Assembly (NCBI GenBank): GCA_018335585.1
Contig: JAGXRZ010000001.1
Span: forward strand, 6,281 to 70,280
Origin: Selenomonadales bacterium
GTDB lineage: Bacteria; Bacillota; UBA994
Direction: 5' to 3'
DNA: 64,000 nucleotides
Part shown: positions 40,950-58,829 of the stretch, piece by piece
Position numbering within the stretch: the first letter of the stretch is position 1
Layout: each line of letters starts with the position of its first letter
Notes under the pieces: generated by a model
Told to the model about the DNA's origin: nothing
Seen by the model: the letters and a program-made list of their open reading frames with translations, nothing else
Database searches by the model: none
Program-made: the position numbers and the translations under genes

Positions 40950-43211
40950 CTATCTGATTGCTAGCCGTAAAAACCCCATGTAGTCTGCGAGTCCTGCGGC
41001 TGTACTGTACTTAGCTATAAGTGCCAGTGCCTCGTGGCTCCGCCCCTGCAGCTCATACACCCGCGCCAGCACGAGCCCAGCCCGTGCCGCGATTTGCGCA
41101 TCGCGGCTTCTTTCTGCAGCGACAAGATGCGGCAGCGCAGCCGCTTGGTTGGCGCGCAAAAGGTAACCCTCGCCTAGGGCTAACTGCAACGCAGGCGTCA
41201 AGGCAAAAGGCACTGCGCTTTTTGGCAGGAGGTGTTCCGGTATGGCGGCACGCACCTGCTCAAACTGCTGATGCACGGAGAAGACCTTGTCTACGTAAGA
41301 TTGCCACCCCTCTTGCCCCCTTGCCCGATAGGCAAGCGCCGCCGAGGCTGCGGTCAAGGCTAGTGTTTCATAGTTTTGGATATTGCGTGGCTGTAGCGCC
41401 ATGCTGCGCTCGTGGTAACGCACAGCCGCAGCGTGATTAGCACGCGCAGCATGCCAGTGCCCAAGCAGGTTGGTGGCACGTGGGTCAAACGGCTCGTGCC
41501 GCAGAAGTGCCTCTAGGTTCGCGCGCTGGGCGGCATCTGGGAGCGAACGGTGCTGCATCATGTTGTCCAGCTCACGCCGCGCGTCAGCATGCCATGGGTT
41601 AACACTGAGTGTGCGCTGGAGACTGGCCATGATTTCGTCTACTTTCCCTGCCTGCGCTAAAGCTGGCACGCGCGCCATCTCCAGCTCAGCTAAGTAGAGA
41701 GCACCGCCTAGCAAGAGCAGCAGACCAAGGGTCGGTGCCAGCACAGGCCTCATGTCAAACCGGAAAGCGTAGCGATTGCCCTGCGCGGAAAGCGCCCCTA
41801 GCGCGGCAAAAAGCAGCAAGTACATAGAGGGGAAGGCCAAGAGCGCTTCTCCTACGGAATGGAAGAGCACCGCAAAGGCTAAGATGCCGATCGCCGCAGC
41901 CGCAGGTTCAGCGCGCCGCTTCCATGCCCAGTACATGTTAACGAGCATAAAGGCAAGATAGATGACCAACCCCAGAATACCAATCTCAAGCGTTATGTCC
42001 AGCGGATCCGAATGGGCACGCAATGTACCGTAATGAAAACTCTGATAGCGAGGATAGACAGCGTTCCACGCCCCACCGCCAAAACCTAAGAGCGGAGACC
42101 CGCGCAGTGCATGCAGCCCGTCTTCGAAAAAGACAAAGCGACCGTCGTCAAGCAGCCCGCGCAGGGTAATACGCGAAAAATAGCCTGCAACTTCCGCAGG
42201 CACAACGCGCGTTGCGCCAAAAACCGTTAAGGCCACACCCAAGGCGAGGGCCAAGGCGAGTATGGCTTTGCCTGCCGTGCGGGCATGTTTTTGCACCAAG
42301 CCCGCCTCCGCAAGCGCCGTCAGCCCCGCCAACACAGGGACGGCAAGAAGCACGGTGAGCCCCGACTGCGTTACCATCAAATACGTTGCTATAAGCCCCG
42401 GCGCACCCATAAACACCAGGAAAGAGAAGAGCTCGAAAAAGCGCCTGTAACAGACGACAACAGTCAGAAGCACACCTGCCGCCAAGGCCAAGTAGCCTCC
42501 CCGCGAAAGCGTAAGCAAAAATGCGGGGATAGTTACTGCCCCTGACGCACTCCAAAGCACACGCCACGGTAGGCTAGTTTCCTGAAAGCCCAAGACTATG
42601 CTGATTAAGAGACTCGCCATGAACAGGCTCGCGGTGGCATTTGGGTACTCGAAGCCGGCGGAGATGCGCCCACCCACTAACTGCGCGGGAGCATCGTAAA
42701 CACCGCTGTATACGGCAAGACCTACTAGGGCAAGCACTGCTCCGCCTGCCACTACGCCTCCAAGCAGCAGTTTTCTTTCCCGCTCACCCAGTTCTAAGGA
42801 AGAGACCAGCCAATAGAGGGCCACAAAGCCCGCCCAGAGCACCAACCCGCGCAGTGCTCCGTTCATAGACGCAGGGCGAAACAGCCCCATGGCATACAGG
42901 AGCACCAGCAGACTTCCTAGCGCGTGCCCTAAGGACCATGGGAGGGGTTTTTTACCCACACCAAACACTAGAGCTCCACAAGCTAGGGCCAAAACCACGG
43001 CACTAACTAACAGCTTGTCCTGTGGCCAATAAAGCCCTTGGACAAAAGGAGACAGCACGACGACAGCTACCACCACTGCAAGCAATGCGCGCCTTGCGGT
43101 TAGTGCCGAGCCGCCCTTTTCCCCTGTTGGGTTACCCGCTGACTTATTCGTTGGTTTGCTCGGCGCAGGCTGCTTCCTCTTGCCCATTGTTTGCCTCCCG
43201 TTGCTTGTCAA
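40950..43211 (-). CDS. O-antigen ligase (Wzy_C) family membrane protein with C-terminal TPR-like region
   Basis: At least 10 hydrophobic segments, ..LTLSRGGYLALAAG.. loop typical of Wzy_C, and ~250 aa of helical repeats at the C-terminus. Confidence 0.55.
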   Translation of the reverse strand: MTSNGRQTMGKRKQPAPSKPTNKSAGNPTGEKGGSALTARRALLAVVVAVVVLSPFVQGLYWPQDKLLVSAVVLALACGALVFGVGKKPLPWSLGHALGSLLVLLYAMGLFRPASMNGALRGLVLWAGFVALYWLVSSLELGERERKLLLGGVVAGGAVLALVGLAVYSGVYDAPAQLVGGRISAGFEYPNATASLFMASLLISIVLGFQETSLPWRVLWSASGAVTIPAFLLTLSRGGYLALAAGVLLTVVVCYRRFFELFSFLVFMGAPGLIATYLMVTQSGLTVLLAVPVLAGLTALAEAGLVQKHARTAGKAILALALALGVALTVFGATRVVPAEVAGYFSRITLRGLLDDGRFVFFEDGLHALRGSPLLGFGGGAWNAVYPRYQSFHYGTLRAHSDPLDITLEIGILGLVIYLAFMLVNMYWAWKRRAEPAAAAIGILAFAVLFHSVGEALLAFPSMYLLLFAALGALSAQGNRYAFRFDMRPVLAPTLGLLLLLGGALYLAELEMARVPALAQAGKVDEIMASLQRTLSVNPWHADARRELDNMMQHRSLPDAAQRANLEALLRHEPFDPRATNLLGHWHAARANHAAAVRYHERSMALQPRNIQNYETLALTAASAALAYRARGQEGWQSYVDKVFSVHQQFEQVRAAIPEHLLPKSAVPFALTPALQLALGEGYLLRANQAAALPHLVAAERSRDAQIAARAGLVLARVYELQGRSHEALALIAKYSTAAGLADYMGFLRLAIR

Positions 43212-43363
43212 TCCCTCCTGGTGCTAGGAGACTACACCACAGAGCATGGTACATGGCATTCACTCGTCTAAGAAACCCCATAACCCACCACCCTTTACTC
43301 TCTTGCCTTATCTCCTACAGTAATACTCATTCTATACCAACTGCGGTTATCCTGCCGCACTTG

Positions 43364-43645
43364 CTAACCATACAAACCCCCAACGCCGCCGACGCCCTGC
43401 CCTTCCCGCAAAGACCACTCCATGTACATCTTGTACTGCTCTCCTTCATCTAGGCTGAAAAAACGCCGCTTTTGTTCTGCGCTGAGAGTCGCAATGAAGG
43501 AGTCGTAGTACTGAGCCTTTCGCCAGCTAAGCCCGCGCCGACGCAAGCTGCGTTCCCTAGCTACTTGTAGGCGCAGCCAGTAGCCGAAGGTCACCACCGC
43601 TACCCCCGTTGCCATTAATAGGTACCACACCAGACTATCGCCCAT
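43364..43645 (-). CDS. small single-TM protein, paralog of 58830..59081
   Basis: MGDSLVWYLLMATGVAVVTFGYWLR..SWRKAQYY..LSAEQKRRF..MEWSLREGQ aligns along its full length with the 83-aa product of 58830..59081. Start chosen by that alignment. Confidence 0.5.
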   Translation of the reverse strand: MGDSLVWYLLMATGVAVVTFGYWLRLQVARERSLRRRGLSWRKAQYYDSFIATLSAEQKRRFFSLDEGEQYKMYMEWSLREGQGVGGVGGLYG

Positions 43646-43770
43646 TCCACCCCACACCTTTTCTTTATTTTTAGGCTGCATATCAAATTCTCTCGCTATT
43701 CTAACACTAGAACATTCACCATTTAGTCGAAGTATGTCGAACGCGAAAAAAATCAAAAGGAAAGGAAAAG

Positions 43771-43909
43771 GAAGCAAAAGGGACGGAGCCTTTTGCTTCA
43801 CCCGTTGCTTCACGGGCTGGCGCAGGAACTCCCAGTACTTGCCGCGAACATTCCTATACGTTACTGGACACCGCTAGAGTGAAGCAAAAGGCTCCGTCCC
43901 TTTTGCTTC
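43771..43909. repeat. Two REP-like hairpins in opposite orientation upstream of pmm
   Basis: 43771-43800 gaagcaaaagggacggagccttttgcttca and 43880-43909 tgaagcaaaaggctccgtcccttttgcttc. Confidence 0.85.
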
Positions 43910-43925
43910 GAAAGGGGATATTCTT

Positions 43926-45365
43926 GTGCCAATAAACCCACAGATCTTTCGTGAATACGATATTCGCGGCAACGCCGAGCGGGACTTTGCTGAGCCCGAC
44001 CTGCGCCGCCTGACCCAGGCCATCGTTACATATTTTGAGTCCCACGGCAGGAGAGAGATGCTCGTCGCCCACGACTGCCGCCTGAGCTCGCCCCGCATCG
44101 TGGCTACCATTCTTGACGTGGCGCGTGAGCGCGGCATGCGGGTCGTTAACATCGGCATGGTTACCACGCCTGCCTTCTACTACGCCGCCAAGCACCTCGG
44201 CATTGACGCCGGGCTTATCGTCACCGCCAGCCATAACCCCCCGCCCGACAACGGCATGAAGGTGCTGCTTGGCCCCTCCACCATCCACGGGGCGGAGATA
44301 AAGCAGATAGAGCGAATTGCCGCCAGGCTCCAGCCGCCAGCCGCCAGCCACCAGCCGCCAACAGCCGGCAGCAACCACCTGCAAGCGACAAGCGACAAGC
44401 CACAAGCGACAATCCATTATGACATCCTCACCCCCTACGTCGCTATGTTGGCCGAAAAAATAAGGCTCGGCCCGCGCCGGCTTAAAGTGGTGGTCGACTG
44501 CGGCAACGGCACCGCCGGCCCGGTTACGGAACGTTTCTTAGAGGCACTAGGCATCGACTACATACCGCTCTATTTTACGCCCGACGGCACCTTCCCCAAC
44601 CACGAGGCCGACCCCACCAAGCTAAAGAACCTTGTGGACCTCCGCGCGCGCGTGCTCGCGGAGAAAGCAGACCTCGGCATCGGCTTTGACGGCGACGGCG
44701 ACCGCATTGGCGTGGTGGACGACCTCGGCAACGTCATTTGGGGCGATTTGCTTATGGCCCTCTTCTGGCGCGAGATACTGCCCAAGCACCCGGGCACCAC
44801 CTGCCTGGTGGAAGTAAAGTGCTCACAAGGCTTAGTGGACGAAATAGTGCGCCTCGGCGGCCGGCCCGAGTTCACCAAAACCGGGCACTCCCTAATCAAG
44901 GCGCGCATGCGCGAGCTTGGCGCCGTCTTCACCGGCGAAATGAGCGGACACATCTTCTTTGCGGACGAGTACTACGGCTTTGACGATGCTCTCTACGCCG
45001 CGGGTCGCTTGCTTAGGCTGCTTTCGCACAGCACTGACAAGCTTTCTTCGCTAATAGCCACGCTCCCCACCTACTACAGCACGCCCGAAACGCGCATCCC
45101 CTGCCCCGACGAGCTAAAGTTTGGCGTGGTCGACGAGCTTACGCAAGTCCTCGCCCGGCAATACGCTACCATTACCGTCGACGGCGTGCGCGTGCAGTTC
45201 CCGGAGGGTTGGGGATTGTTTAGAGCATCAAACACCGGGCCGGTGATTGTCACCCGCTGCGAAGGAAAAACTCCCGCGCTAAGGCAGGAGTATATGCGTA
45301 TACTTGATGAGGCATTAGCCAAGGTGCTGCCCGGCGTTGCGATACCTTGGGAAGTGGGAAACTAA
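43926..45365 (+). CDS. phosphomannomutase/phosphoglucomutase (alpha-D-phosphohexomutase)
   Basis: Active-site TASHNPPPDNGMK, Mg loop GFDGDGDR, GEMSGH, C-terminal RASNTGPVIVTRCEG. Confidence 0.85.
   Translation: MPINPQIFREYDIRGNAERDFAEPDLRRLTQAIVTYFESHGRREMLVAHDCRLSSPRIVATILDVARERGMRVVNIGMVTTPAFYYAAKHLGIDAGLIVTASHNPPPDNGMKVLLGPSTIHGAEIKQIERIAARLQPPAASHQPPTAGSNHLQATSDKPQATIHYDILTPYVAMLAEKIRLGPRRLKVVVDCGNGTAGPVTERFLEALGIDYIPLYFTPDGTFPNHEADPTKLKNLVDLRARVLAEKADLGIGFDGDGDRIGVVDDLGNVIWGDLLMALFWREILPKHPGTTCLVEVKCSQGLVDEIVRLGGRPEFTKTGHSLIKARMRELGAVFTGEMSGHIFFADEYYGFDDALYAAGRLLRLLSHSTDKLSSLIATLPTYYSTPETRIPCPDELKFGVVDELTQVLARQYATITVDGVRVQFPEGWGLFRASNTGPVIVTRCEGKTPALRQEYMRILDEALAKVLPGVAIPWEVGN
44322..44412. 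repeat. Heptamer arrays (GCCAGCC-type, then GCGACAA x4) lying in frame inside pmm
   Basis: gccaggctccagccgccagccgccagccaccagccgcc...caagcgacaagcgacaagccacaagcgacaa encodes ..ARLQPPAASHQPPTAGSNHLQATSDKPQAT.., in a variable loop. Confidence 0.8.
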
Positions 45366-45406
45366 CGATAGATGACCAGAGCCTGATTAGCCTTATTGCC
45401 AACCTG

Positions 45407-45435
45407 TTGACTCCAAGCTGCTGTATGGCTATACT
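45407..45435 (+). promoter_or_regulatory. sigma70-like promoter for the first island cassette
   Basis: TTGACT (45407-45412), 17-nt spacer, TATACT (45430-45435). Confidence 0.45.
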
Positions 45436-45483
45436 AAATCTATGTTTTGGAATCGCCACATCATCCGGTGGGGAGGAGTTAGC

Positions 45484-46737
45484 TTGTACATTACGCGGGC
45501 TGTAGAGCCCGTAATCAAGCGATTGGCGGGCATGTTTGGCGTTTTGCTGGTCACAGGGCCGCGACAGGTGGGCAAAACAACCATGCTGCAAAGCTTATCC
45601 GGCCCCGAACGCAAGTATGTCACGTTAGATGACCCCGATCTAAGGCGCTTGGCCAAGGCGGACCCAAGCCTCTTTCTGCAGCGTTTTACGCCTCCCGTCA
45701 TCATCGACGAAATTCAGTACGCCCCCGAACTGCTGCCTTACATCAAGATGCATGTAGATTCCACGCGGCGCACAGACGAGTTTTGGCTGACGGGCTCGCA
45801 AGTCTTTCAGACTATGCAGAACGTCAGCGAATCCCTAGCCGGGAGAGTAGGCATCGTCAATCTGCTTGGCTTGTCTACCCACGAGATACACGGCACTCAC
45901 TCTGAGCCATTTCTGCCTGTGCCCGAGAAGCTCTTGGCCAAAGCCGCGCCACAGCAAGCGAAACTCGGACTCCACGAGCTGTATGCCCGCATATTTAAGG
46001 GCAGCATGCCGGCCCTCTACGCCCATGCCATCGACCGCGAGGCCTACTACCGCGCTTACGTTAATACCTATCTGCAACGAGACATCCGCGACCTTACACA
46101 AGTAGCGGACGAAATGTCGTTCTTCAACTTTATGACGGTGGTTGCCGCCCGCACGGCCCGACCTATAGTCTACGAGGAAATCTCTAAGGATTGCGGCATT
46201 AGCGCGCCCACAGCCAAGAAGTGGCTCTCCATACTGGTTTCGTCCGGCCTTGTGGCGCTCGTGCAGCCCTATCACAACAACATCCTAAAGAGGGTCGTTA
46301 AGTCGCCGCTTCTACACTTTCTGGACACAGGGTTGTGTGCGTATCTACTTAAGTGGGCCAGCCCCGAAACGCTAGAGCGCGGCGCGATGTCCGGCGCCTT
46401 TTTTGAGAGCTTCGTGTTCGCGGAAATCTACAAGGGGTGGCTTAACGCCGGCAAGGAACCCCCTCTCTACTACTACCGCGACAAAGACCAAAAGGAAATC
46501 GACCTGCTTATCTACTGGGACGGCACCCTCTACCCCATCGAAATTAAAAAAACCGCGTCCCCCGGGCGAGATGCGGGTAAGCACTTCCATCTATTGCAGC
46601 CGCTCGCCGACTCTCTGCGAACCGAGGCGCACCCGCACCTTAAAGCAAGCATCGGCCCGGGCGCGGTTGTCTGCATGGCTAACAACCTCTTGCCCATAGA
46701 CAGACACGTCTGGGCTGTCCCGGCGTGGATGATCTGA
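45484..46737 (+). CDS. AAA+ ATPase of the AAA_14/DUF4143 type (island cassette 1)
   Basis: Walker A TGPRQVGKTT, Walker B VIIDEIQ. Start set to TTG 45484 behind GGGGAGGAG, giving (M)YITRAVEPV (track start 45442). Confidence 0.65.
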   Translation: MYITRAVEPVIKRLAGMFGVLLVTGPRQVGKTTMLQSLSGPERKYVTLDDPDLRRLAKADPSLFLQRFTPPVIIDEIQYAPELLPYIKMHVDSTRRTDEFWLTGSQVFQTMQNVSESLAGRVGIVNLLGLSTHEIHGTHSEPFLPVPEKLLAKAAPQQAKLGLHELYARIFKGSMPALYAHAIDREAYYRAYVNTYLQRDIRDLTQVADEMSFFNFMTVVAARTARPIVYEEISKDCGISAPTAKKWLSILVSSGLVALVQPYHNNILKRVVKSPLLHFLDTGLCAYLLKWASPETLERGAMSGAFFESFVFAEIYKGWLNAGKEPPLYYYRDKDQKEIDLLIYWDGTLYPIEIKKTASPGRDAGKHFHLLQPLADSLRTEAHPHLKASIGPGAVVCMANNLLPIDRHVWAVPAWMI

Positions 46738-46740
46738 AGT

Positions 46741-47189
46741 GGAGGATAACCAGAGCCTGATTGACCTTATTGCACTGATTAGGAGTTGACCTCAGGGGCC
46801 TGCATAGGGGCCTATATAAGCGTCTCTCCTTCTAATCAGGGTAATCAGTGAAATCAGGCTCTAAACTACGGGGGTTACTCAGGATAACCAGAGCCTGATT
46901 AGCCTTATTGCCCTGATTAGGAGTTGAGCACAGGGGCCTTCACCTCAGGGGCCTTCATAGGGGCCTATACAAGCGTCTCTCCTTCCAAATCAGGGTAATC
47001 AGTGAAATCAGGCTCTAAATTACCTGGGATACTCAGGATAACCAGAGCCTGATTAGCCTTATTGCCCTGATTAGGAGTTGACCTCAGGGGCTTTCACCTC
47101 AGGGGCCTTCATAGGGGCCTTTATAAGCGTCTCTCCTTCCAATCAGGGTAATCAGTGAAATCAGGCTCTAAACTACCGGGGATACTCAG
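46741..47189. repeat. Tandem island hairpin units (~153-bp period, ~2.9 copies) with no cargo between them
   Basis: Units at 46834-46918, 46988-47072 and 47141-47189 (truncated), plus a solitary right arm starting at 46744. Confidence 0.9.
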
Positions 47190-47245
47190 ATCCTAGCGCA
47201 GTTGCCTGCCTTGCTAGGGCCTATTTATCATGCTATTGTAGTATT

Positions 47246-47626
47246 GTGGAAGAGCATTGGGGGTGGCAATTTGCTATGTGGTCAACCCATATCCTAGACA
47301 GCGCGCGTGCCAAGAAAAAGCAAGCGCGGGAGCAACTTCGCGTTCGATTGCTAGACGCTGCCATGCAAGCCCTAGATAAGCTGTCCCTGTTGCTTCAGTT
47401 TGATAAAGCCTATGTATTTGGTTCCGTGGCAAGGCAGCAGGGGTTCGACGAGCTTTCGGATTTGGATATAGCCTTCGCAGGGCTGCGGGACGAAGATTAT
47501 TTTACCGCTGCGGCTTTTCTCTCAAGAGAAGTGGGCATAGACGAAGTGGATGTCGTGCAATTAGAGGGACATCGCCTGGCTAGTACAATAGTAAAGGAAG
47601 GGATACCGTGGAAAAGGAAAGGGTAG
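47246..47626 (+). CDS. nucleotidyltransferase-domain protein (MNT-type antitoxin)
   Basis: VFGSVARQ..SDLDIAF (GS..DxD Pol-beta NTase motif). Alternative ATG at 47276. Confidence 0.7.
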   Translation: MEEHWGWQFAMWSTHILDSARAKKKQAREQLRVRLLDAAMQALDKLSLLLQFDKAYVFGSVARQQGFDELSDLDIAFAGLRDEDYFTAAAFLSREVGIDEVDVVQLEGHRLASTIVKEGIPWKRKG

Positions 47627-48090
47627 CCTTACTACAGGCAGAACTGCAGTCACGCACCCAAGAGATTGAGAACATATACTTGAAGATTGACGAACGTAAA
47701 GGGCGGAGGGGCAAAATAGCCGTCGAAAGCCTTGCCTATCAGCTCCACAACCTGTACTGCGCATTTGAAGACCTCTTTAAGGCCGTATCTGTTGCCTTTG
47801 AAAACAACATCGACCACAAGTCGCGCTATCACACCGAACTGCTAAAAAGAATGACCTACACGATTGAAGGCGTAAGGCCCGCTCTCCTGACGCAGGATAG
47901 TTACATGTTGCTAGATAATCTGCGTGCGTTCAGGCATGTGTTCCGGCACGCCTATTCCTATGACCTAGATGAACGAAAGGTGCGAATTGTCTTAGAAGAT
48001 GTGGCCAAACTGCGGGCGTTGTACGCTAGGGATGTGCAGGCCTTTTTGCAGGGACTAGGGAGTCGCAATAGCAGTGACAACGGCAGGTAA
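47608..48090 (+). CDS. HEPN-like putative RNase toxin partner of MNT
   Basis: RHVFRH (Rx4H) motif in a helical 160-aa protein. GTG start overlaps the MNT gene by 19 nt. Confidence 0.5.
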   Translation: MEKERVALLQAELQSRTQEIENIYLKIDERKGRRGKIAVESLAYQLHNLYCAFEDLFKAVSVAFENNIDHKSRYHTELLKRMTYTIEGVRPALLTQDSYMLLDNLRAFRHVFRHAYSYDLDERKVRIVLEDVAKLRALYARDVQAFLQGLGSRNSSDNGR

Positions 48091-48201
48091 TCAGTGAAAT
48101 CAGGCTCTAAATTACCGGAGATCCTCAGGATAACCAGAGCCTGATTGACCTTACTGCCCTGATTAGGAGTTGAGCACAGGGGCCTTTGAATCAGGCTCTA
48201 A
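48088..48201. repeat. Island hairpin unit (left arm 5-prime truncated, starts in the HEPN stop codon)
   Basis: taatcagtgaaatcaggctctaaattaccggagatcctcaggataaccagagcctgattgaccttactgccctgattaggagttgagcacagggg.. Confidence 0.85.
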
Positions 48202-48261
48202 CACGCACTGGCACATGCTTTCGCTTATGTGTTAGCGATGAACCAAAATTGAGCACTAATC

Positions 48262-48336
48262 CTACCTCAAGACCGTTGGCGTGCGCGTGCACTTAAGGAA
48301 AAACTCCCGCCTAAGGCAGGAGTATAAGCGCATGTT
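48262..48336 (+). pseudogene. remnant of the pmm 3-prime end with an internal deletion
   Basis: accgttggcgtgcgcgtgca|cttaaggaaaaactcccgcctaaggcaggagtata matches pmm 45176-45196 joined to 45262-45298. Confidence 0.7.
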
Positions 48337-48427
48337 CAGCGTCGGTCGTTAGTCGCTGCGGCAAGCGGACAGCCTCCCAGCAGCTAGTGTAAAGCAAAAG
48401 GCTCCGTCCCCGGTGCTTCCCGGTGCT

Positions 48428-48646
48428 TTACCTCGCAATTAGCTCAGTTCTAGCGTAGCGCACACCCGTCTTACGGAGGACACCGGCATCTCTTAGCCTG
48501 TCAATGCGTCTTTTTACGTCATCGTCATCAAATCCGAGCTGTTTTTTCTTCACCTCAATGAGGATCTGGTCGATGGTGAACGGCTCACTCTTTGATAAAA
48601 CAATTTGCACAAGCTCGTATATGGGCGACTCTTTAACTGGAACCAT
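48428..48646 (-). CDS. small winged-helix-like protein coupled to the HD protein
   Basis: 72 aa. Its ATG follows the HD gene TGA directly (TGAATG). ..IDRLRDAGVLRKTG.. resembles a wHTH wing. Confidence 0.45.
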   Translation of the reverse strand: MVPVKESPIYELVQIVLSKSEPFTIDQILIEVKKKQLGFDDDDVKRRIDRLRDAGVLRKTGVRYARTELIAR

Positions 48647-50488
48647 TCATTCTCCTCCTTTTGCTCCATTATATCCGGGCACAAAGTGTTTTGACAGACC
48701 TTTTCCTAATTCTTCTCCTATTTGTTTTCTGAGTGAAGTGAGATTTTTATGTTCCCCGGTGAAGTACAGAAAAAACACTGGGAACAGAGACCAGTTCCTG
48801 TCCAGTTCTGCATTAATTGAAGACACCTCTGACAACGGCACCGCCTCTCCTTGGCAGTGCACATATGGGTCTAACACGGATGCCTTATTCTTGTTAAACT
48901 GCACTAGGTACTTACCTAGGACTGCGCGAGCAGCATGGTGGACAATCTCTTGGAACTTACTGCTATCGTCTACATCCATAAGTGCCTTCGCAGCCCCTAA
49001 GAAGAATCCCCCGCTTTTTACCTTCTTAGCCTGCTCAAAGGATGCCCTAAGCGGTTCCGGCAGCCACTCGCTGGCTGCGTTCATGGCCTGCACGCAGGCC
49101 TGGTCTATTTGACGAAAATCATTAGTCCGTTTGACAAGCGAGCTATAGCGTTTCTGATTAGATAGGAGTTCTTCTAGCTGGAACTTCAACTCGTCCTGAC
49201 CATTGTGGTACTCCTCGTAGTAATGGCGGCGCAGCACGGTAAGCATCCAAGCGTCGTCCCACTGCACAAGGTCATCAAAATACACCTTGTCAGCATCACG
49301 GTCACCATTAGCCACTGCTCGCCACAGCCCAGAAATATCCATGGGAAGCGCGCGGCCCTTTTCGGTTAGAACGGCACCTTGGTCCATTAAATACCTGGTC
49401 GCGAGGCCTGTTACAGTTTGTGTCAAGAGGGCGTCTGTCTTCCTTACTCTGTGGTGGAAGACTACATACTTGTAGAGAAACCACCGTAGCTTGAAAAAAT
49501 CCTCTATCGCGCTTAGCGCTCGAATGTCAGGGCAGAAGTAGAACCTTTCTTCAACTTGCATAAGACGCATAGATGTCAATAGGCGTTCATCGGCTGCCCT
49601 GCTCTTCATAAAGCCTGAATTCTCAAGGTCTCTTACAACATAGTCTAGTCTATCACCGTCCATGGGGCCGGAGATAATGCCATGTATATCAGCGCACAGA
49701 AAATCACCTTCGTTCTTCCCTGTTTCTTTTAGGATATCCAAACATAAACTATGTACGAGTTTATAGAGCATTTGGCAGCACGCTTCTTCGCGGTTAGGGT
49801 GCACATTTAGCTGAGCCTTGCGCGCTACATGCTCTAATAGCCTATCAGCAATCCTAATACCTAACGCCTCATGCAGTTCATCTGTGCCATTAACACCCAA
49901 GCTGTTGCTAAACTCCGCAACCCGCGTGGTCATCGTTGGGGCACACGACAGGCCGTGGTTAATGTCGTTTAGTGCCAACTCTGTGACGTGGCTGAATGGC
50001 GGGTGGCCGATATCATGTAACAGAGCTGCGCATCTGACAGCTTGGTATAGGATAACGTAAACCCAGACCTGCTCCTGCTTGAGCGAGGGCCGGTTAGTAA
50101 TGTACATCCTGTCACAATCGGCAATCACAGATGGGTGCCTCATAAGCTCTGTAATGTGGTCGCCTAACTTCGTCCGCCATATCTCCGCCTGCCCCGTACT
50201 AAGGTAGCCTCTTATTCGCTGCTCGACTTTACCAAGAAAATCATCCTTGGTCGTAGGTACTGCGTTCTCCACTGCATACCGCAAAATCCGGCTACAGAGG
50301 TGCATGGCCCCAATCGAGTGCGTAAAGCGAGAGGTTTTGTTCGCCGGATATGTTAAGTAGGCCGTAGAATTCTGTAAGACGGAATGCAGACGGTTAAAAG
50401 CCTGCGTCGATATTATGAGCTTCTCCATTTGACTCAACTGGACTGAGCCATGGACAGAGTCTGCTATCTGGAATATCTTGTCGTTCAT
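48647..50488 (-). CDS. HD-domain phosphohydrolase of the dGTPase/SAMHD1-like type
   Basis: FTHSIGAMH .. LLHDIGHPPFSH .. DGDRLDYVVRD gives the H..HD..D metal motif set. ATG 50488 behind GAAGGAG. AT-rich gene. Confidence 0.7.
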   Translation of the reverse strand: MNDKIFQIADSVHGSVQLSQMEKLIISTQAFNRLHSVLQNSTAYLTYPANKTSRFTHSIGAMHLCSRILRYAVENAVPTTKDDFLGKVEQRIRGYLSTGQAEIWRTKLGDHITELMRHPSVIADCDRMYITNRPSLKQEQVWVYVILYQAVRCAALLHDIGHPPFSHVTELALNDINHGLSCAPTMTTRVAEFSNSLGVNGTDELHEALGIRIADRLLEHVARKAQLNVHPNREEACCQMLYKLVHSLCLDILKETGKNEGDFLCADIHGIISGPMDGDRLDYVVRDLENSGFMKSRAADERLLTSMRLMQVEERFYFCPDIRALSAIEDFFKLRWFLYKYVVFHHRVRKTDALLTQTVTGLATRYLMDQGAVLTEKGRALPMDISGLWRAVANGDRDADKVYFDDLVQWDDAWMLTVLRRHYYEEYHNGQDELKFQLEELLSNQKRYSSLVKRTNDFRQIDQACVQAMNAASEWLPEPLRASFEQAKKVKSGGFFLGAAKALMDVDDSSKFQEIVHHAARAVLGKYLVQFNKNKASVLDPYVHCQGEAVPLSEVSSINAELDRNWSLFPVFFLYFTGEHKNLTSLRKQIGEELGKGLSKHFVPGYNGAKGGE

Positions 50489-50630
50489 ACTTACCGCTCC
50501 TTCGTGACCCATCGCCTACTACCGTGGCTGCTCAGGCCAAATGTAGACCTTTAAGGATACATTCTCCACAAACGAGAGCATTTCCTGCACCCCCGCGCGT
50601 GAAGCAAAAGCTCTGTCCCCAGTGCTTTCG

Positions 50631-50873
50631 TAATCAGGGTAATCAGTCAAATCAGGCTCTAAGCTTACGGGGGATACTCAGGATGACCAGAGCCTGATTA
50701 GCCTTATTGCCCTGATTGAGAGTTTGCCCTCAGGGGCCTTCACCTCAGGGGCCGTCATAGGGCCTTTATAAGCGTCTCTCCTTCCAATCAGGGTAATCAG
50801 TGAAATCAGGCTCTAAATTACCGGAGATCCTCAGGATAACCAGAGCCTGATTGACCTTATTGCGCTGATTAGG
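50631..50873. repeat. Two island hairpin units with linker
   Basis: Units at about 50631-50720 and 50788-50873. Preceded by a degenerate REP at 50598-50630. Confidence 0.9.
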
Positions 50874-50970
50874 GCATAGATTTAGAATCTGTGCGTCCCG
50901 GACAGCTGCACTTTTATGCTCTATTTTGATACACTTTGAAGCATAAACGTACAAACGCGAGGTGACTGGC

Positions 50971-51570
50971 ATGTCAGTTGATGAAAGAACGTCCATTTAC
51001 AGGCTCTTGAAAGATGGCAACGGTTTCGTGACAGCAACGCAAGTTACGGCAGCCGGAATTCCGCGACGCTGCCTAACCGCCATGAGTAGGTCTGGGTTAA
51101 TATGTAAGGTCGAACGCGGTATCTACGCCCTACCTGAGGTCTGGGAGGACGATCTGTTTTTCACTCAGTATCGCTTTAGCAGAGGCATTTTCTCGCACGA
51201 AACGGCATTGTCATTGCACTCACTAACAGACCGCACTCCCGTCAAGTATACCATGACCTTCCCCGCTGGGTACAATACTGTAAACGCTAGGCGCAAGGGT
51301 ATCATTGCTAAATGTGCGACAGCGGATACTTATGCATTAGGAGTGACAGAAGTGCCTTCTCCTAACGGAAACCCACTGCGGGCCTATGACATTGAACGTA
51401 CTCTGTGCGACATTGTAAAGACTAGGCATCAGGCTGACATTCAAGTCATCAACCAAGCCATGAAGGCCTATGCCAGCTCAAGGGATAAGGATATGGCTAA
51501 GCTCATTGACTATGCCAGAAGGCTACGTGTGACACCCAAGGTGCTGCACTACATGGAGGTGCTGCTATGA
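50971..51570 (+). CDS. AbiEi-family antitoxin (type IV TA)
   Basis: N-terminal ..VTATQVTAAGIPRRCLTAMSRSGLICKVERGIYALPE. ATGA overlap with AbiEii. ATG 50971 behind GAGGTGA. Confidence 0.7.
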   Translation: MSVDERTSIYRLLKDGNGFVTATQVTAAGIPRRCLTAMSRSGLICKVERGIYALPEVWEDDLFFTQYRFSRGIFSHETALSLHSLTDRTPVKYTMTFPAGYNTVNARRKGIIAKCATADTYALGVTEVPSPNGNPLRAYDIERTLCDIVKTRHQADIQVINQAMKAYASSRDKDMAKLIDYARRLRVTPKVLHYMEVLL

Positions 51571-52451
51571 CGACACGCAATCCTGCACAGCTTAAAGCCT
51601 TGTTCAAGAAAATGGCTACCGAAAAGAACTTATCCGCACAGCTGATCATGCAGAATTACATGATGGAACGGTTTCTAGAACGTCTTTCACTGTCTAATTA
51701 CAGGGAAAACTTCATCCTAAAGGGCGGCTTTCTTATCGCAGCCATTGTCGGGCTTGATTCTAGAGCTACGAGGGATCTCGACGCTACAGTTAGAGGTCTC
51801 ACGCTCACGCATGATTCTATTCGTTCGGTGTTTAGCAGCATATGTGGGGTTGACGCAGGGGACCAGGTCACATTTTCGGTTTCTAGAACAACGGATATCC
51901 GTGAAGCCGATGATTATCCCGGCATACGTGTTAGCCTGACAGCCAGCTTCCCACCCCTAATTGTCCCCATGTCCGTTGACGTAACTGCTGGCGATAAGAT
52001 TACGCCCCGCGCAATCGAATACACTTTTAGCCTTATGTTTGACGCCCGCTCTATATCTGTTCTAGCCTATAATCTAGAGACCATCTTAGCGGAAAAGCTC
52101 GAAACTATCTTGTCGAGAAACATCGCCAACACAAGGCCTAGGGATTTCTATGACGTATACATCCTCTATACGTTGTGTGGATCAGAGTGCAACCGGGCAG
52201 TCCTTCAAGCGGCCTTAGGAGAAACTGCCGTGAAGCGCGGCAGCGTAGCTGTGCTGAGGCAGTACGAGAGCATTGTCACTAACATCAAAAGCAGTTCAAG
52301 CCTGCGGGCTTTCTGGTCACGCTACCAGAAGGATTTCGACTATGCCAAAGACATCAGCTTTGACGACGCTTGTGATGCCATCCTGACGGTCCTAACTGAA
52401 GCATGTGCAGCCGGGCGGTCGCCTTTCCCTCCAAATCAGGGTAATCAGTGA
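51567..52451 (+). CDS. AbiEii/AbiGii nucleotidyltransferase toxin (DUF1814)
   Basis: ILKGGFLIAA..SRATRDLDATV NTase motif. The last 6 codons (PNQGNQ) and the stop come from the hairpin unit. Confidence 0.7.
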   Translation: MTTRNPAQLKALFKKMATEKNLSAQLIMQNYMMERFLERLSLSNYRENFILKGGFLIAAIVGLDSRATRDLDATVRGLTLTHDSIRSVFSSICGVDAGDQVTFSVSRTTDIREADDYPGIRVSLTASFPPLIVPMSVDVTAGDKITPRAIEYTFSLMFDARSISVLAYNLETILAEKLETILSRNIANTRPRDFYDVYILYTLCGSECNRAVLQAALGETAVKRGSVAVLRQYESIVTNIKSSSSLRAFWSRYQKDFDYAKDISFDDACDAILTVLTEACAAGRSPFPPNQGNQ

Positions 52452-52846
52452 AATCAGGCTCTAAACTACGGGGGTTACTCAGGATAACCAGAGCCTGATT
52501 AGCCTTATTGCCCTGATTAGGAGTTGACCTCAGGGGGCTTCACCTCAGGGGCCTTCATAGGGGCCTTCATAAGCGTCTCTCCTTCTAATCAGGGTAATCA
52601 GTGAAATCAGGCTCTAAACTACGGGGGTTACTCAGGATGACCAGAGCCTGATGGACCTTATTGCTCTGATTAAGGCGTGTAGGAGTGCTGTGAAGCAAAA
52701 AGCTCCGTCCCTTTTGCTTCCACCTCAGGGGCCTTCACAGGGGCCTGTATAAGCGTCTCTCCTTCCAATCAGGGTAATCAGTGAAATCAGGCTCTAAATT
52801 ACTGCGGATACTCAGGATAACCAGAGCCTGATTAGCCTTATTGCCC
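52434..52846. repeat. Three island hairpin units with an embedded REP hairpin (52691-52720)
   Basis: Units at about 52434-52520, 52586-52672 and 52768-52846. The last right arm is cut at ccttattgccc|acgag. Confidence 0.9.
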
Positions 52847-53056
52847 ACGAGCCACCTCAAAATGGGTGACAAACACCTCGCCGCGCAGGCGCGACACCAT
52901 TTCTTCCGGATGAGCCGTTTCGAAGAACAGCTCTACTGCTTCCCGTAGGTTGAACCTCGCTTGTTCCACTGTGTCCCCTTGGCTGGCGATATCGAGCTCT
53001 GGGCACAAGGCTACAAACCCACTACCTTCACGCTCAATCACAGCGGTAAATACCAT
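52838..53056 (-). CDS. hicB: HicB-family antitoxin, orphan copy (hicA replaced by repeat)
   Basis: MVFTAVIEREGSGFVALCPELDIASQGDTVEQARFNLREAVELFFE, near-identical to 56134..56364. Its stop codon is supplied by the repeat arm. Confidence 0.75.
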   Translation of the reverse strand: MVFTAVIEREGSGFVALCPELDIASQGDTVEQARFNLREAVELFFETAHPEEMVSRLRGEVFVTHFEVARGQ

Positions 53057-53093
53057 TGCGATCATCCTCCACTTCGAACAATCATGTGTCTAC

Positions 53094-53122
53094 AGTTTAC
53101 ATGATATGTCTAGCAGTGACAA
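53094..53122 (-). promoter_or_regulatory. reused promoter module, copy 1 (drives orphan hicB)
   Basis: Minus strand TTGTCA, 17 nt, TAAACT. Same module at 55792-55820 and 56402-56430. Confidence 0.45.
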
Positions 53123-53194
53123 CGGCACGCAAGACTGGCTCATCTTTGTCGTCCGCTGCGAAGAAAAAACTCCCGCGCTAAGGCAGGAGTATAC

Positions 53195-53740
53195 CTAGTC
53201 CAACTGCTCTGCAAAAATGTCGCCTAGGCAAACAGTAATCCCTGAAAGAACACAGGAGGAGATCTCCCCTGCTTCCCCTACTTCCTGATCTAGAACAAGC
53301 TTGCCGTCTTTTAGAGCAAAAACCTGCACCGACTTGTCATCCGGATCCACAATCCAGTATTCCCTGACCCCGCATCGTTCGTAGACTTTGAATTTCTTCC
53401 GCAAATCGTAATAGGCGGTGGCCGGAGAAAGAATTTCGACCACCAGATCAGGTGCTCCGTTGATCCGGGCCGGCTCGACTATTTCCATTCGCTCTTTGGA
53501 GATAAACAGGATGTCCGGTTGGAAGGTTTCTGTTTCACCTAGACAAACATCTACCGGAGCATCCAAGATCAGCCCCAGCTTTTGCTTAGTCACAAAGGAG
53601 CGCATCTGGAACCCTAGGCGCCCGGAAATAATCTGGTGATAAATAGACGGCGCAGGCGTCATAACAAGCTCTCCTCCGATTAACTGATACGGTGCACCTT
53701 CCGGGAGATTTTGATAGTCGGCGTGAGTATAGATCGTCAT
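53195..53740 (-). CDS. Uma2 family (DUF820) endonuclease
   Basis: ..YQLIGGELVMTPAP..PDILFISKER..APDLVVEILSP..REYWIVDP. Start moved to ATG 53740 behind AGAGGGGGG (the track N-terminus is repeat-derived). Confidence 0.7.
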   Translation of the reverse strand: MTIYTHADYQNLPEGAPYQLIGGELVMTPAPSIYHQIISGRLGFQMRSFVTKQKLGLILDAPVDVCLGETETFQPDILFISKERMEIVEPARINGAPDLVVEILSPATAYYDLRKKFKVYERCGVREYWIVDPDDKSVQVFALKDGKLVLDQEVGEAGEISSCVLSGITVCLGDIFAEQLD

Positions 53741-53852
53741 AATCACACCCCCCCTCTTAGCGCGGAGATTCCTTATGTCAATCGCCACGGTTTCGCTATC
53801 ATCATAGCACCGCAGACTGCTTCCCGCAACGGGAGTCTGGCTTCCACGTTCA

Positions 53853-54030
53853 CTCAGGATGACCAGAGCCTGATGGACCTTATTGCCCTGATTAGGAGTT
53901 GAGCACAGGGCCTTCATAGGGCCTTTTTACGCGCCTTTCCCTCTAAATCAGGGTAATCAGTGAAATCAGGCTCTAAATTACCGGGGATACTCAGGATGAC
54001 CAGAGCCTGATGGACCTTATTGCCCTGATT
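53853..54030. repeat. Solitary right arm plus one full island hairpin unit
   Basis: ctcaggatgaccagagcctgatggaccttattgccctgattaggagttga.. followed by the unit at about 53944-54030, then REP 54051-54080. Confidence 0.9.
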
Positions 54031-54580
54031 AAGACGTGTAGGAGTGCTGTGAAGCAAAAAGCTCCGTCCCTTTTGCTTCGCTAGCGGCTGGCGACTTACC
54101 TAGGACAAATCTGGCCCCTTCACGACGCAGCATTTGGTACGGGCTAATGCAGGCAATGCCTATCCCTTGGCATACGTTAGGGATCTTTATGCGCTTCAAG
54201 GAATTCGCCGGAATCTCGTGCGTGACAACGATGTGGCGCCCCGCTAATGCGTGTGCTATTAGGTAGTAATCGGCCACTTGCATAAAAGTGTTGATTGCAG
54301 CTGCTTCGTACTTCTGCCTCGTTACCCAGTCGGCAACTTTCCCAAGCTGCACAAAAACGTCAGCGTCAGTGTCACGGAAGAGGCTGCCACCCGTGTTCCG
54401 TACCCAATCCGACAGCTCATCAGCACCGCCAGCTATTTCGTCGGCAATTTTGTCTACACTCCAAACACGGCCCTTGGCATTGCTAACAAGCAGCCAATCC
54501 CAGAATGCAGGGCAAAAGTCTAATCCGTAGTGTAGGTTTTTAGCCTGAATGAACACATTGGTATCCAGCAAATAAGTCAT
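54029..54580 (-). CDS. DUF4411 PIN-like nuclease
   Basis: MTYLLDTNVFIQAKNLHYGLDFCPAFWDWL N-terminus. ATGA overlap with the upstream ImmA gene. The C-terminal tail is read through a REP hairpin. Confidence 0.65.
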   Translation of the reverse strand: MTYLLDTNVFIQAKNLHYGLDFCPAFWDWLLVSNAKGRVWSVDKIADEIAGGADELSDWVRNTGGSLFRDTDADVFVQLGKVADWVTRQKYEAAAINTFMQVADYYLIAHALAGRHIVVTHEIPANSLKRIKIPNVCQGIGIACISPYQMLRREGARFVLGKSPAASEAKGTELFASQHSYTS

Positions 54581-55776
54581 AGCATCACCCCTAATGCACG
54601 GGCAGCCTCATAGAAGGTAGCGGTTTTACGTATTCCCAACATGCGAAAAGCGTCGCGAAACAATGTCTGCCCTTCTAGGGTGCTAGAGATTACTGCCCGA
54701 GCAAAGAGCTTGCCCGTGCGCGCCGCAAGTGTGCGGTAAAAATCACCGCCGCTGCCACCACCACGATCGTAGCTTAAGATGCGTTCCGCTTCTGCATTGT
54801 AGGCCTGCCAGTAAGTATCCTGATCGATAGCGCCAATGTCCAGCAGTCGACGCAATATCACCAGCAGGCTCACCTTGAACACGCGGGCCAAATGCTGTAC
54901 CTCCTCTTCGAGCGGAAGATCTGGCCGACGTCGACCATGCAATTCTTCCACAGGCACGAGCACCTCTGCTGCTATCGCATTGCACCACCGCTCGATTGGC
55001 TGCGCGGGAACTGCTCCCGCAACCGGATCGGACACTCCACTTTCCCCAATCCACAAGTGTGCCAATTCATGGCATAGGGTAAACATTTGCGCAGACTTGC
55101 TGTCGGCTGCATTCAAAAAGATCACCGGAGCGAAGCGGTCAGCAAGGGCGAATCCACGGAACTCGGCAACATCAAGCTTGCGACGAGTGTTGCTCCCAAC
55201 TATTGAACTCGCCATAACAAGAATACCCACATCTTCGGCTTTTTGTTTAAGATAGCGTAACGCCTCCGCCCAAGTCGGAAGTCTCATTCTTGCTTCTGTA
55301 GAAAGCCCTAGCGTGCGCGCTATCGACCCCGCCACTGCGACAGGATCCTCTTGCGGGCTGACGCTCTGTATGAAGCTCAAAGGTGTTAAGCCATGTAAGT
55401 GCGCGTACTCGACAAACCAGTCTTGCCTCTGTTGGCACATGTACACCGTGTCAAGCAAGTTTAGGCTGGGGCGTGTGTCTATTCGACCGGCAAGTGTTCG
55501 CAAATCAGGTATCGGCAACTGCAGATCCGGAGGCACGGATAGGAACAAGTACCCAATCGGAAGATGCACAGCTTGCGCGTACTCCTCCAGCTGACGCAGA
55601 GTCGGCTGAACTTTGCCTAACTCCCAATCTCGCAGTTTTGGGAAGCGCCGGCTAAGGAACATGCTTTCTAGTCCCGCGCGTTCGCGTGCCCAACGCAGCA
55701 CCTCGGGCTTGACCGCGACCCTAGCCAATCCGACCACGTCCCTTTCTAGGTTAAATCTCGCTTGTTCCACTGCCAC
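54577..55776 (-). CDS. HTH (XRE-like) plus ImmA/IrrE-type zinc metallopeptidase
   Basis: HELAHLWIGE (HEXXH) with an N-terminal ..PEVLRWARERAGL.. HTH region. The first ~10 codons are a hicB fragment, so the true start is uncertain. Confidence 0.65.
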   Translation of the reverse strand: MAVEQARFNLERDVVGLARVAVKPEVLRWARERAGLESMFLSRRFPKLRDWELGKVQPTLRQLEEYAQAVHLPIGYLFLSVPPDLQLPIPDLRTLAGRIDTRPSLNLLDTVYMCQQRQDWFVEYAHLHGLTPLSFIQSVSPQEDPVAVAGSIARTLGLSTEARMRLPTWAEALRYLKQKAEDVGILVMASSIVGSNTRRKLDVAEFRGFALADRFAPVIFLNAADSKSAQMFTLCHELAHLWIGESGVSDPVAGAVPAQPIERWCNAIAAEVLVPVEELHGRRRPDLPLEEEVQHLARVFKVSLLVILRRLLDIGAIDQDTYWQAYNAEAERILSYDRGGGSGGDFYRTLAARTGKLFARAVISSTLEGQTLFRDAFRMLGIRKTATFYEAARALGVML

Positions 55777-55791
55777 TTCTCATGTGTCTAC

Positions 55792-55820
55792 AGTTTACAT
55801 GATATGCCTAGCAGTGACAA
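55792..55820 (-). promoter_or_regulatory. reused promoter module, copy 2 (drives ImmA/DUF4411)
   Basis: TTGTCA-17-TAAACT on the minus strand. Confidence 0.4.
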
Positions 55821-55937
55821 CGGCACGCAAGACTGGCTCAGCTTTGTCATCCGCTGCGAAGAAAAAACTCCTGCGCTAAGACAGGAGTGCTGTGAAGCAA
55901 AAAGCTCCGTCCCCGGTGCTTCCCCGGTGCTTCACGC

Positions 55938-58813: not shown

Positions 58814-58829
58814 TCTTAACAAGCGCATG

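Follow-up and report, generated by a model that had tools for sequence, protein, structure and literature searches.

In the 64,000-nt stretch of Selenomonadales DNA analysed here (contig JAGXRZ010000001.1; hereafter the window, with its first letter as position 1), a 13.4-kb island (45371-58762) lies between pgm and a polysaccharide gene cluster, and over it the G+C content drops from about 0.58 to about 0.50. This island is an array of anti-phage and toxin-antitoxin gene cassettes bordered by a recurring unit of about 90 bp, and nearly all of its cargo, by Pfam and PADLOC, matches known or candidate defence systems. We describe this unit here; the reading that suits it best is a recombination site in a cassette array with an integron-like working, but the unit does not qualify as the attC site of integrons. 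The island and its parts are as follows.

45371-58762, plus strand: whole island, the cassette array, between pgm (43926-45365, plus strand) and a UDP-glucose dehydrogenase gene (59187-60353, minus strand)
45375-45400, plus strand: left edge of the array, spacer tail GATGACC and a right arm cut after TTGCC, with no left arm (unit positions 64-89)
45442-46737, plus strand: cargo, AAA_14/DUF4143 ATPase (PADLOC candidate PDC-S01)
46743-46785, plus strand: half site, AGGATAACC and right arm (46752-46780) without left arm, directly after the DUF4143 stop codon (unit positions 58-100)
46781-46833, plus strand, with more copies at 46919-46987 and 47073-47140: type A linker, a gene-free cassette
46824-46923, plus strand: full unit, with polypyrimidine lead, left arm 46834-46862, spacer 46863-46889, right arm 46890-46918, and AGGAG
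46978-47077, plus strand: full unit, left arm 46988-47016 and right arm 47044-47072
47131-47189, plus strand: left-arm-only unit, left arm 47141-47169 and spacer to CTCAG, then MNT/HepT cargo (one excision partner)
47246-48090, plus strand: cargo, MNT (Polbeta)/HepT toxin-antitoxin pair
48086-48169, plus strand: unit without its first iteron, right arm 48136-48164, and a 13-nt left-arm fragment at 48189-48201
48428-50512, minus strand: cargo, 72-aa open reading frame (ORF) and 621-aa HD-domain protein with a weak dGTPase-like match
50631-50873, plus strand: two full units on either side of a single gene-free linker, with left arms at 50632 and 50786 and right arms at 50689 and 50842
50962-52451, plus strand: cargo, AbiEi/AbiEii
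52424-52846, plus strand: three units, left arms 52434, 52587, and 52767, right arms 52490, 52643, and 52823
52838-53917, minus strand: cargo, 75-aa ORF and Uma2 nuclease-fold protein (PDC-S03)
53852-54031, plus strand: half site (CTCAGGATGACC and right arm 53865-53893), type A linker, and full unit (left arm 53946, right arm 54002)
54029-56373, minus strand: cargo, DUF4411 and M78 peptidase (RmrA/capP-like), then HicA toxin (55938-56168) with a 79-aa partner ORF (56134-56373) that has no family match
56532-56728, plus strand: half site (right arm 56544-56572), type A linker, and full unit (left arm 56642, right arm 56697)
56782-58676, minus strand: cargo, DUF4276 and AAA_21 ATPase (PADLOC HEC-01)
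58665-58762, plus strand: last full unit, left arm 58675-58703 and right arm 58731-58759 (the other excision partner)

Each full unit consists of a left arm (AATCAGGGTAATCAGTGAAATCAGGCTCT), a spacer, and a right arm (AGAGCCTGATTAGCCTTATTGCCCTGATT), with the left arm made of three AATCAG iterons at a 9-nt period and the right arm being its inverted counterpart. Our whole-window arm map gave 12 left arms and 15 right arms, all on the plus strand and between 45378 and 58759. An earlier reading of this DNA, made from its letters and ORFs (the sequence-only reading), had proposed these arm sequences and their three-iteron make-up, with complementarity at 24 of 29 positions plus one G:T and mismatches gathered in mid-arm, and all of this we reproduced exactly: there are 24/29 Watson-Crick pairs and one T:G, and the fixed mismatches fall at position 13 (C/T) and positions 16-18 (TGA versus AGC). 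The spacer is conserved as proposed, though it measures 26-28 nt and not the 27-31 nt first given; its conserved ends, AAAYTAC and CTCAGGATRACC, enclose a variable octamer, and the spacer at 46863-46889 reads AAACTAC, eight nucleotides, and CTCAGGATAACC. Counted as sites, the 15 copies share a single orientation, are 85-100 nt long, and are spaced 137-2553 bp apart, as in attC-type multi-site arrays, which call for two or more sites of 50-150 nt in one orientation within a few kb, while the 29-nt arms amount to terminal inverted repeats of the sort expected of miniature inverted-repeat transposable elements (MITEs). Against shuffled sequences, the three-iteron pattern matched 24 times for 0.01 expected and the right-arm pattern 14 times for 0 expected, and no copy outside 45375-58762 was found when the 100-nt consensus unit was scanned over the window.

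At 46741-47189, Tandem Repeats Finder reports a period of 154 with 2.6 copies and 93% matches, which upholds the recurrence of about 153 bp in the sequence-only reading save for the first period, which is 138 bp. Four gene-free copies are contained here, the last ending after CTCAG at 47189, and with no ORF longer than 26 aa and no promoter-like or terminator-like site they deserve the name of empty cassettes that had been given to them. Period lengths of 137, 138, 153, and 154 bp arise because a 15-mer in the type A linker (ACCTCAGGGGCCTTC) varies from one to three tandem copies (47081-47111, 50728-50757, and 52527-52571); this 15-mer includes CTCAGG, a hexamer also found in the unit spacer. 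Among the incomplete sites, right arms without a left arm stand at 45378, 46752, 53865, and 56544 (4/15), and these half sites begin within the spacer at (CTC)AGGATRACC, while the only left arm without a right arm is that at 47141, which ends after CTCAG. At 260 bp past the last unit, within an 83-aa ORF, we also noticed CCCAGGATAACTG (59020-59032), which resembles the spacer end CTCAGGATAACC and may be chance, a relic, or a secondary site.

The cargo is positioned in two ways. From right arm to left arm run AbiE (50842-52434), DUF4276 together with AAA_21 (56697-58675), and, with a less exact fit, the HD gene (48136-50632), so that the earlier placing of HD and AbiE where the linker would be is right for AbiE and approximate for HD, and applies to HEC-01 as well. 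The DUF4143, MNT/HepT, Uma2, and DUF4411/M78/HicA cargo abuts half sites and is not bounded by a right arm and a left arm. The AbiEii stop codon (52451) falls inside the left arm at 52434, and the right arm at 52823 is cut after TTGCCC, a 6-nt microhomology with hicA sequence. Next to Uma2, the 75-aa ORF is a truncated near-copy of the hicA-side ORF (56134-56373); no family matches it, and only its position makes it antitoxin-like.

More conspicuously, an 11.5-kb block of the array appears in an excised form in ENA sample ERZ27300245, the source of a single event in one assembly with no coverage data. Here, contig k141_9795 (11,675 bp) corresponds to window 47137-58723 at 99.97% identity and is closed through the left arm, with a junction that leads from the end of the HEC-01 cassette through the left arm to the spacer and MNT/HepT side of the unit at 47141. 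The first and last 141 nt of this contig are identical, which equals the k in the k141_ name, and an exact terminal overlap of k we take to be the way in which MEGAHIT prints a closed cycle. From the same sample, contig k141_9105 (94.8 kb) represents the chromosome with the reciprocal deletion, in which window 45313-46921 is joined to 58661-59253 and the order is pgm, DUF4143, one gene-free cassette, one hybrid unit, and the dehydrogenase gene. Judged by their sequences, a single crossover would yield both contigs as its exact reciprocal products, provided that the ancestor had one gene-free unit and not three. The junction k-mers should derive from reads, because the shared repeat is far shorter than k. 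Thus, the suggestion that the array acts as a set of excisable cassettes finds its counterpart in a circle and a matching deletion from one metagenome. In other samples, the array is integrated with an arm map identical to that of the window, and no single-cassette circles were found among the short contigs checked.

The crossover interval comprises the left arm and AAACTAC, 36 identical nt in all. As the partner at 47141 has no right arm, hairpin formation would not be needed for excision. Moreover, the crossover would not lie in the GGTTA-CTCAGGA-TAACC palindrome of the spacer, because a polymorphic base beside CTCAGGA stems from the right-hand partner. We had considered the 7-nt CTCAGGA as the crossover point, since half sites break there, and rejected it for the mapped event on account of this same adjacent base.

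The exact unit is also present in two short contigs that binning assigned to Bellilinea sp. (L001 and L002) and in metagenome contigs L005, L012, L022, and L064, with our metagenome scan giving 4 true loci among 112. Three genomic contexts are represented: the pgm site (the window, L022, and L002, the last matching window 53790-54031), a position beside rpsT (L001 and L012), and a site between a Fic gene and an NTP-transferase gene (L005 and L064). In every context there is cargo of toxin-antitoxin or defence type, and that of the related arrays includes Uma2, Fic, HepT, and DUF4143. Beside rpsT, the arrays repeat every 124 nt and use another linker of about 40 nt (type B), L064 combines types A and B, and overall two or three linker families are mixed among the arrays. 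In fact, the comparison of the window with L022 reveals a swap of linker A for linker B between identical arms. The cassettes of L022 are 97-98% identical to those of the window, with 48136-53140 absent and another AbiE cassette in the place of HEC-01.

As to the host, pgm has its nearest relatives in the genome collection among Bacillota, at no more than 54% identity, and a search for orthologous arrays by way of these relatives found no units; a copper-amine-oxidase-like wall-protein domain also fits Bacillota. The only unit-bearing species-representative genome is binned as Chloroflexota (Bellilinea sp. OMB012; contigs of 2.3 and 2.7 kb), and set against the Bacillota-like pgm this means either mis-binned contigs or cassettes moving between phyla. 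No similar DNA was found in plasmid and phage collections. A second and unrelated hairpin, which resembles repetitive extragenic palindromic (REP) sequences (GAAGCAAAAGG-N8-CCTTTTGCTTC), is scattered in housekeeping intergenic DNA of the window, L005, L022, and L064, and because it is common to all of them, these three loci are tied to one lineage with the window. In the window it occurs outside the island at 12292-12320, 19438-19466, 20498-20526, 23585-23613, 43771-43801, and 43879-43909, inside the island at 48391, 52692, 54051, 55894, 56504, and 56746, and again at 58780; it is also joined to the starts of cassettes (following A[AG]G[GA]C[AG]TGTAGGAGTG) and to the ends of minus-strand ones. 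This hairpin is dispersed, in contrast to the array-bound units.

Folding of the units as DNA and as RNA, which had been called for earlier, gave long imperfect hairpins well above chance, with both strands folding about equally. Full units reach -24 to -27 kcal/mol as DNA (z -5.6 to -7.0) and -48 to -52 kcal/mol as RNA (z -5.8 to -7.1), the unit at 46824-46923 being at -25 (z -5.9) and -51.9 (z -7.1), respectively, while an element read as right arm, linker, and left arm folds at -24.3 kcal/mol (z -4.5) and half sites show no folding beyond chance (z -0.05 and +0.89). In the hairpin, a 12-bp helix is followed by one mismatch, another 2 bp, a loop of 3x3, a further 11 bp, and a 27-nt top, which is not the layout of R box, spacer, and L box. 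For covariation, we took the window together with five related loci and compared their 22 units (18 distinct sequences), in which no pair is altered on both sides, 22/25 arm pairs are invariant, and shuffles score equally. Right-arm substitutions turn G:C into G:T in 3/18 distinct sequences and break a pair in 5/18. Because the arms are almost invariant, this test is uninformative; of the earlier claim about the stem, the strong folding therefore stands and selection for an imperfect stem gains nothing from compensatory change, and of the two arm features that were to persist across copies, iteron spacing is kept in every unit compared and complementarity cannot be judged from nearly invariant pairs.

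It is in the iterons that the sequences carry the mark of constraint, rather than in the stem. Variable positions number 3/36 in the hexamers, 5/12 in the inter-hexamer triplets, and 0/10 in the clamp (AGAGC/GCTCT), with a Fisher p of 0.017 for hexamers versus triplets, computed after one spurious match had been removed. This agrees with the earlier view of the iterons as a putative protein-binding array, as does the retention of the hexamer and its 9-nt period in relatives of other phyla. Within the spacer, the GGTTA/TAACC inverted repeat around CTCAGGA is paired in 84% of cells and its changes are one-sided, and CTAC (reverse complement GTAG) is inconstant, with TTAC and TAAC variants.

To these relatives we were led by a scan of species-representative genomes for AATCAG-N3-AATCAG-N3-AATCAG, which returned at least 120 stretches. 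Among the matches listed, 25/120 carry both arm types, and in 23 of these 25 a CTGATT arm precedes an AATCAG arm at 20-300 nt, an order that is the same on either strand; no inverted arms occur among 120 viral stretches that match the same pattern. Chitinophaga has scattered foldback elements of 190-330 bp with ends of TTGTCTGACTCAGGATTAAA and then CTGATTAYR repeats, Desulfobacteraceae have elements of 110-230 bp with ends of TTGTCTGAACCG and then CTGATT repeats, and hairpins of 80-100 bp are found in Saprospiraceae, Luteolibacter, Leptofilum, and Promineifilaceae. While hexamer and period are kept, triplets and iteron number change, the latter being unequal between arms (7 versus 4, and 4 versus 13). 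A common variant hexamer is CTTATT, which in the window is the odd one in the middle of the right arm. The kinship of the window units with these elements is probable on sequence grounds. Since the solitary relatives use the register of right arm, interior, and left arm, this would be the ancestral element, and the unit of left arm, spacer, and right arm would then be the joint of two neighbours; the other register noted in the sequence-only reading (right arm, linker, left arm) is thus the one that the relatives share, in 23/25 among the matches listed. Side by side with this, we observed that arms expand like microsatellites up to 13 hexamers (L127, 3097-3230 and 4003-4180; L196, 1912-2169; L216, 1802-2077), and that older Chitinophaga copies have further elements nested within their central palindrome (AAGCGGATA...), a sign that the hairpin apex may be self-targeted.

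For a cognate enzyme, we searched Pfam with about 45 window ORFs, about 20 ORFs of related loci, and 110 ORFs beside solitary relatives, and inspected the contig flanks. The genes that adjoin the solitary relatives include no recurrent transposase or recombinase family (110 ORFs), so that the proposed look at the genome neighbourhood of other copies came back empty, and tblastn with approximate IntI1 and XerC query sequences had no match in the window or the five related loci. An IS3-type ORF 4 kb from the L022 array was the sole mobility-type match. Searches of Rfam 15 gave no match at E<=1 over 43000-60000, and for the relatives only sub-threshold matches to microRNA precursors, typical of any long hairpin. 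Literature searches for the repeat sequence, Chitinophaga MITEs, or an iteron foldback family found no description, and broader ones on integron-like and cassette systems returned only integron or unrelated papers.

Known site types were compared directly. An attC site is defined by R'' (RYYYAAC) and R' (GTTRRRY) at its stem base (PMC4889954). Its imperfect hairpin further comprises an R box, a central spacer that is unpaired, an L box bearing extrahelical bases, and a terminal structure that varies. The likeness to attC drawn earlier does not extend to this pair, which is absent from all units; two chance pairs per strand, at 55615-55756, are the only ones present, and the unit stem base is YYYAAT/ATTRRR in place of the AAC/GTT triplets. 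A looser pattern (AATCAGGCTCT...AGAGCCTGAT) matches only chance terminator-like hairpins. Arm-type sites of a lambda-like integrase were rejected on geometry, as the arms would abut the core, and an HUH nick site in the loop or an IS200/IS605-like YTAC with small hairpin was rejected as the small hairpin is not conserved. With GGTTA/TAACC paired to 84% and the crossover left of the palindrome, a tyrosine-recombinase core site, in which conserved inverted binding sites enclose a 6-8-bp overlap that contains the crossover, is not indicated either. No direct repeats that would be target-site duplications flank the elements, all copies of this lineage are in arrays and not dispersed in the many copies typical of MITEs, and the dispersed intergenic distribution of REP sequences and REP doublet-forming hairpins (REPINs) is likewise absent.

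Several further repeats were noticed in and around the island. A segmental duplication (52841-53190 versus 56100-56450) covers the hicA-side region with the small partner ORF and promoter, and a short contig (L472) holds an uncut version of the copy at 52846 beside Uma2, though it may be a chimeric assembly across this duplication. From the 3' coding region of pgm, a piece of 48 nt (45247-45294) is repeated inside the island at 53146-53193 (94%), 55833-55885, 56450-56490, and 48290-48333. These pieces stand upstream of minus-strand cassettes, beside a repeated promoter-like module (TTGTCA, 17 nt, TAAACT; minus strand), and could be either what former insertions at the end of pgm left behind or a leader that the cassettes have in common. 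Moreover, a second AAA_14/DUF4143 ATPase gene, of the family that forms the first island cassette and also occurs near the L064 array, is located among housekeeping genes at 14008-15468 with no unit nearby, and short intergenic tandem heptamers (ACTGAGC, GGCGTTA, CAAGCGA, AGTGCGA, and TGTCGCT) are found at 6287-6326, 6820-6856, 8509-8539, 9608-9633, 25841-25948, and 44382-44416.

Taken together, we consider it an evenly balanced proposition that the units function in a cassette array as recombination sites in double-stranded form, with an enzyme that would act on them in trans. In such a scheme, the AATCAG hexamers (three per arm, with a 9-nt period) would be bound on double-stranded DNA by a recombinase or transposase whose gene lies in another part of the genome, and recombination between two units of the same orientation would let the intervening DNA leave as a circle while one hybrid unit stays; the reverse reaction would add cassettes, and hairpin extrusion would be possible but not required. 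In its favour are the confinement of the units to the island, in one orientation and far above chance, the three contexts, the shuffled linkers and strain differences, the excision with its deletion and the position of the crossover, the constraint on hexamers, the relatives in other phyla, and the defence cargo. A fuller version, which we put forward tentatively and at clearly less than an even chance, would have a non-integron gene-cassette system in a probably Bacillota-like host, with inverted AATCAG iteron triplets as sites recognised in double-stranded form and a trans-acting recombinase that builds, shuffles, and excises anti-phage and toxin-antitoxin cassettes, as one branch of a cross-phylum family of iteron-armed foldback elements; this family would take in Bacteroidota, Desulfobacterota, Verrucomicrobiota, and Chloroflexota.

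Certain observations weigh against these sites having a dedicated enzyme or such wide kin. No recombinase or transposase gene was found in the window, in its contig flanks (about 88 kb of contig in all), or in the five related loci. Several cargo blocks are bordered by half sites instead of complete units, and other junctions came about via microhomology (TTGCCC at 52846), CAGGG slippage (L064, with a 96-nt unit), or the REP-like hairpin (HepT to Uma2 in L022). Five of the ten partial-unit ends cluster in CTCAGGA/TRACC of the spacer (unit positions 54-64; probability about 0.003 under a uniform model), which is off the mapped crossover, and a second cluster lies before the third right-arm iteron in three independent cases. 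The contig with the circular signature could be a tandem duplication in a second strain, and because the crossover lies in a stretch of 36-43 nt of identity, RecA-type recombination could give the same products. Finally, the elements of other phyla are linked to the units through a short motif, itself the search key, plus a shared CTCAGGAT beside the arm that was not searched for.

The main rival, which we judge unlikely yet worth real weight, builds on several of these points: the repeats would be passive, with no dedicated enzyme, and the array would change through RecA-type homologous recombination, slippage, and microhomology joining. The crossover of deletion and circle does lie in the longest identical stretch between the partners, the aberrant junctions just described fit, no recombinase gene was found in the window, flanks, or related loci, and the array is identical in several samples. 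However, passive repeats do not account well for a unit at three unrelated chromosomal sites with different cargo, for hexamers and a polarity conserved across phyla, for conservation that is stronger at the hexamers than between them, or for half-site ends that cluster non-randomly, and a non-replicating circle, as the rare product of 36 nt of homology, should not assemble fully beside its deletion partner. If instead the units were attC sites folded as single strands, in a cluster of attC sites with no integron-integrase close by (CALIN) with IntI encoded elsewhere, then the imperfect hairpin of about 90 nt with conserved mismatches and folding on both strands, the one orientation of all sites, the gene-free cassettes, the toxin-antitoxin and defence cargo, and the stop codon inside a site would be as expected; moreover, Proteobacteria are not the only group known to have integrons and CALINs, and defence genes are stored in sedentary integrons (PMC4889954; bioRxiv 10.1101/2024.07.02.601686). 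Nevertheless, we find this quite improbable: the RYYYAAC...GTTRRRY pair coincides with no unit, there is no unpaired central spacer beside a 7-bp R box, approximate queries for an integron or Xer-type tyrosine recombinase found none by tblastn in the window and related loci, 4/15 right arms have no left arm, a site without a right arm recombined, covariation was not seen, the solitary relatives are in the opposite register, and the best pgm relatives are from Bacillota, a phylum reported without complete integrons (PMC4889954).

That same register is what a non-autonomous MITE of about 125 bp with 29-bp terminal inverted repeats would call for, one that is moved by a DDE transposase through cut or copy and paste, targets the ends of resident copies, and thereby builds tandem arrays and traps cargo. 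Chitinophaga relatives, which occur scattered and have inserted at the apex of one another, and right-arm half sites, which always retain TRACC and the arm and diverge within the preceding 7 nt, are consistent with such an element, but target-site duplications were not seen, dispersed copies are absent in this lineage, a joint of 26-28 nt is conserved at both ends, unlike a random target, and no related autonomous element or nearby transposase was found save the IS3-type ORF 4 kb from the L022 array, which makes this account very improbable. Hardly credible, in turn, is that the units are transcribed and serve as processed RNAs, protein sponges, terminators, or insulators between cassettes. 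Their RNA hairpin is very stable (-52 kcal/mol, z -7), its apex carries a conserved CUCAGGAU, and the units do lie between genes, yet there is no Rfam family match, neither a promoter-like nor a terminator-like site lies in the gene-free units, the two strands fold to much the same degree with no covariation, and the unequal iteron numbers of relatives speak against a required stem.

Compared with known systems, the array of recombination sites proposed here most recalls attC sites, sedentary integrons, and CALINs in that similar imperfect palindromes (about 60-140 nt) form one-orientation arrays with short cassettes between, many cassettes are gene-free or carry toxin-antitoxin and defence genes, circles arise from site-to-site recombination, sites are highly alike within a host, and arrays may be far from an integrase. 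Unlike attC, the units lack AAC/GTT triplets and the layout of R box, unpaired spacer, and L box, each of their arms is built from three hexamer iterons in direct repeat, they often occur as half sites, the crossover that was mapped falls in the 5' arm with one partner unable to fold, and IntI was not found. With REP sequences, bacterial interspersed mosaic elements (BIMEs), and REPINs, which are served by REP-associated tyrosine transposases (RAYT), they have in common inverted short repeats, hairpins of about 100 nt, alternating orientation in arrays with two kinds of spacer, near identity within a genome, and a non-autonomous nature served in trans, as would hold for the units; REPINs, however, are scattered between genes, whereas the units are confined to three cargo-bearing arrays in a genome with its own dispersed REP-like hairpin, and BIMEs do not bracket genes, and the CTAC/GTAG of the spacer is here not constant. 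Foldback MITEs are similar in having terminal inverted repeats with internal short repeats and a small, non-coding body, and the solitary relatives of Chitinophaga and Desulfobacteraceae resemble classic MITEs; differences from these are the absence of target duplication and of dispersal in the lineage, the strict head-to-tail arrays, the conserved joint, and up to 2.5 kb of cargo between arms. As in tandem att-site accretion and Xer-dependent pdif modules, direct site repeats separate modules that are gained or lost as circles, and the spacer has a short inverted repeat with 7 nt at its centre (GGTTA-CTCAGGA-TAACC), the place at which most half sites break off, though the left half of this repeat is poorly conserved, the reconstructed crossover lies elsewhere, and the modules contain neither a dif-like sequence nor an integrase gene.

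Integrons are essentially Gram-negative and are tied to IntI and folded attC sites, and to our knowledge they are the only well-understood store of promoter-poor cassettes behind repeated recombination sites. If a dedicated enzyme does exist for the units, they would represent an independent invention of cassette capture and a new handle for defence islands in poorly studied phyla, and with the iteron motif one can search concretely for a family of foldback repeats that is widespread and of which our repeat-specific literature searches found no description. The array is a strain-variable bank of defence and toxin-antitoxin cassettes, which appears both integrated and excised, and so has a role like that of the integron, with a site grammar that differs from it in its hexamer iterons, the lack of AAC/GTT triplets, and folding that would not be needed.

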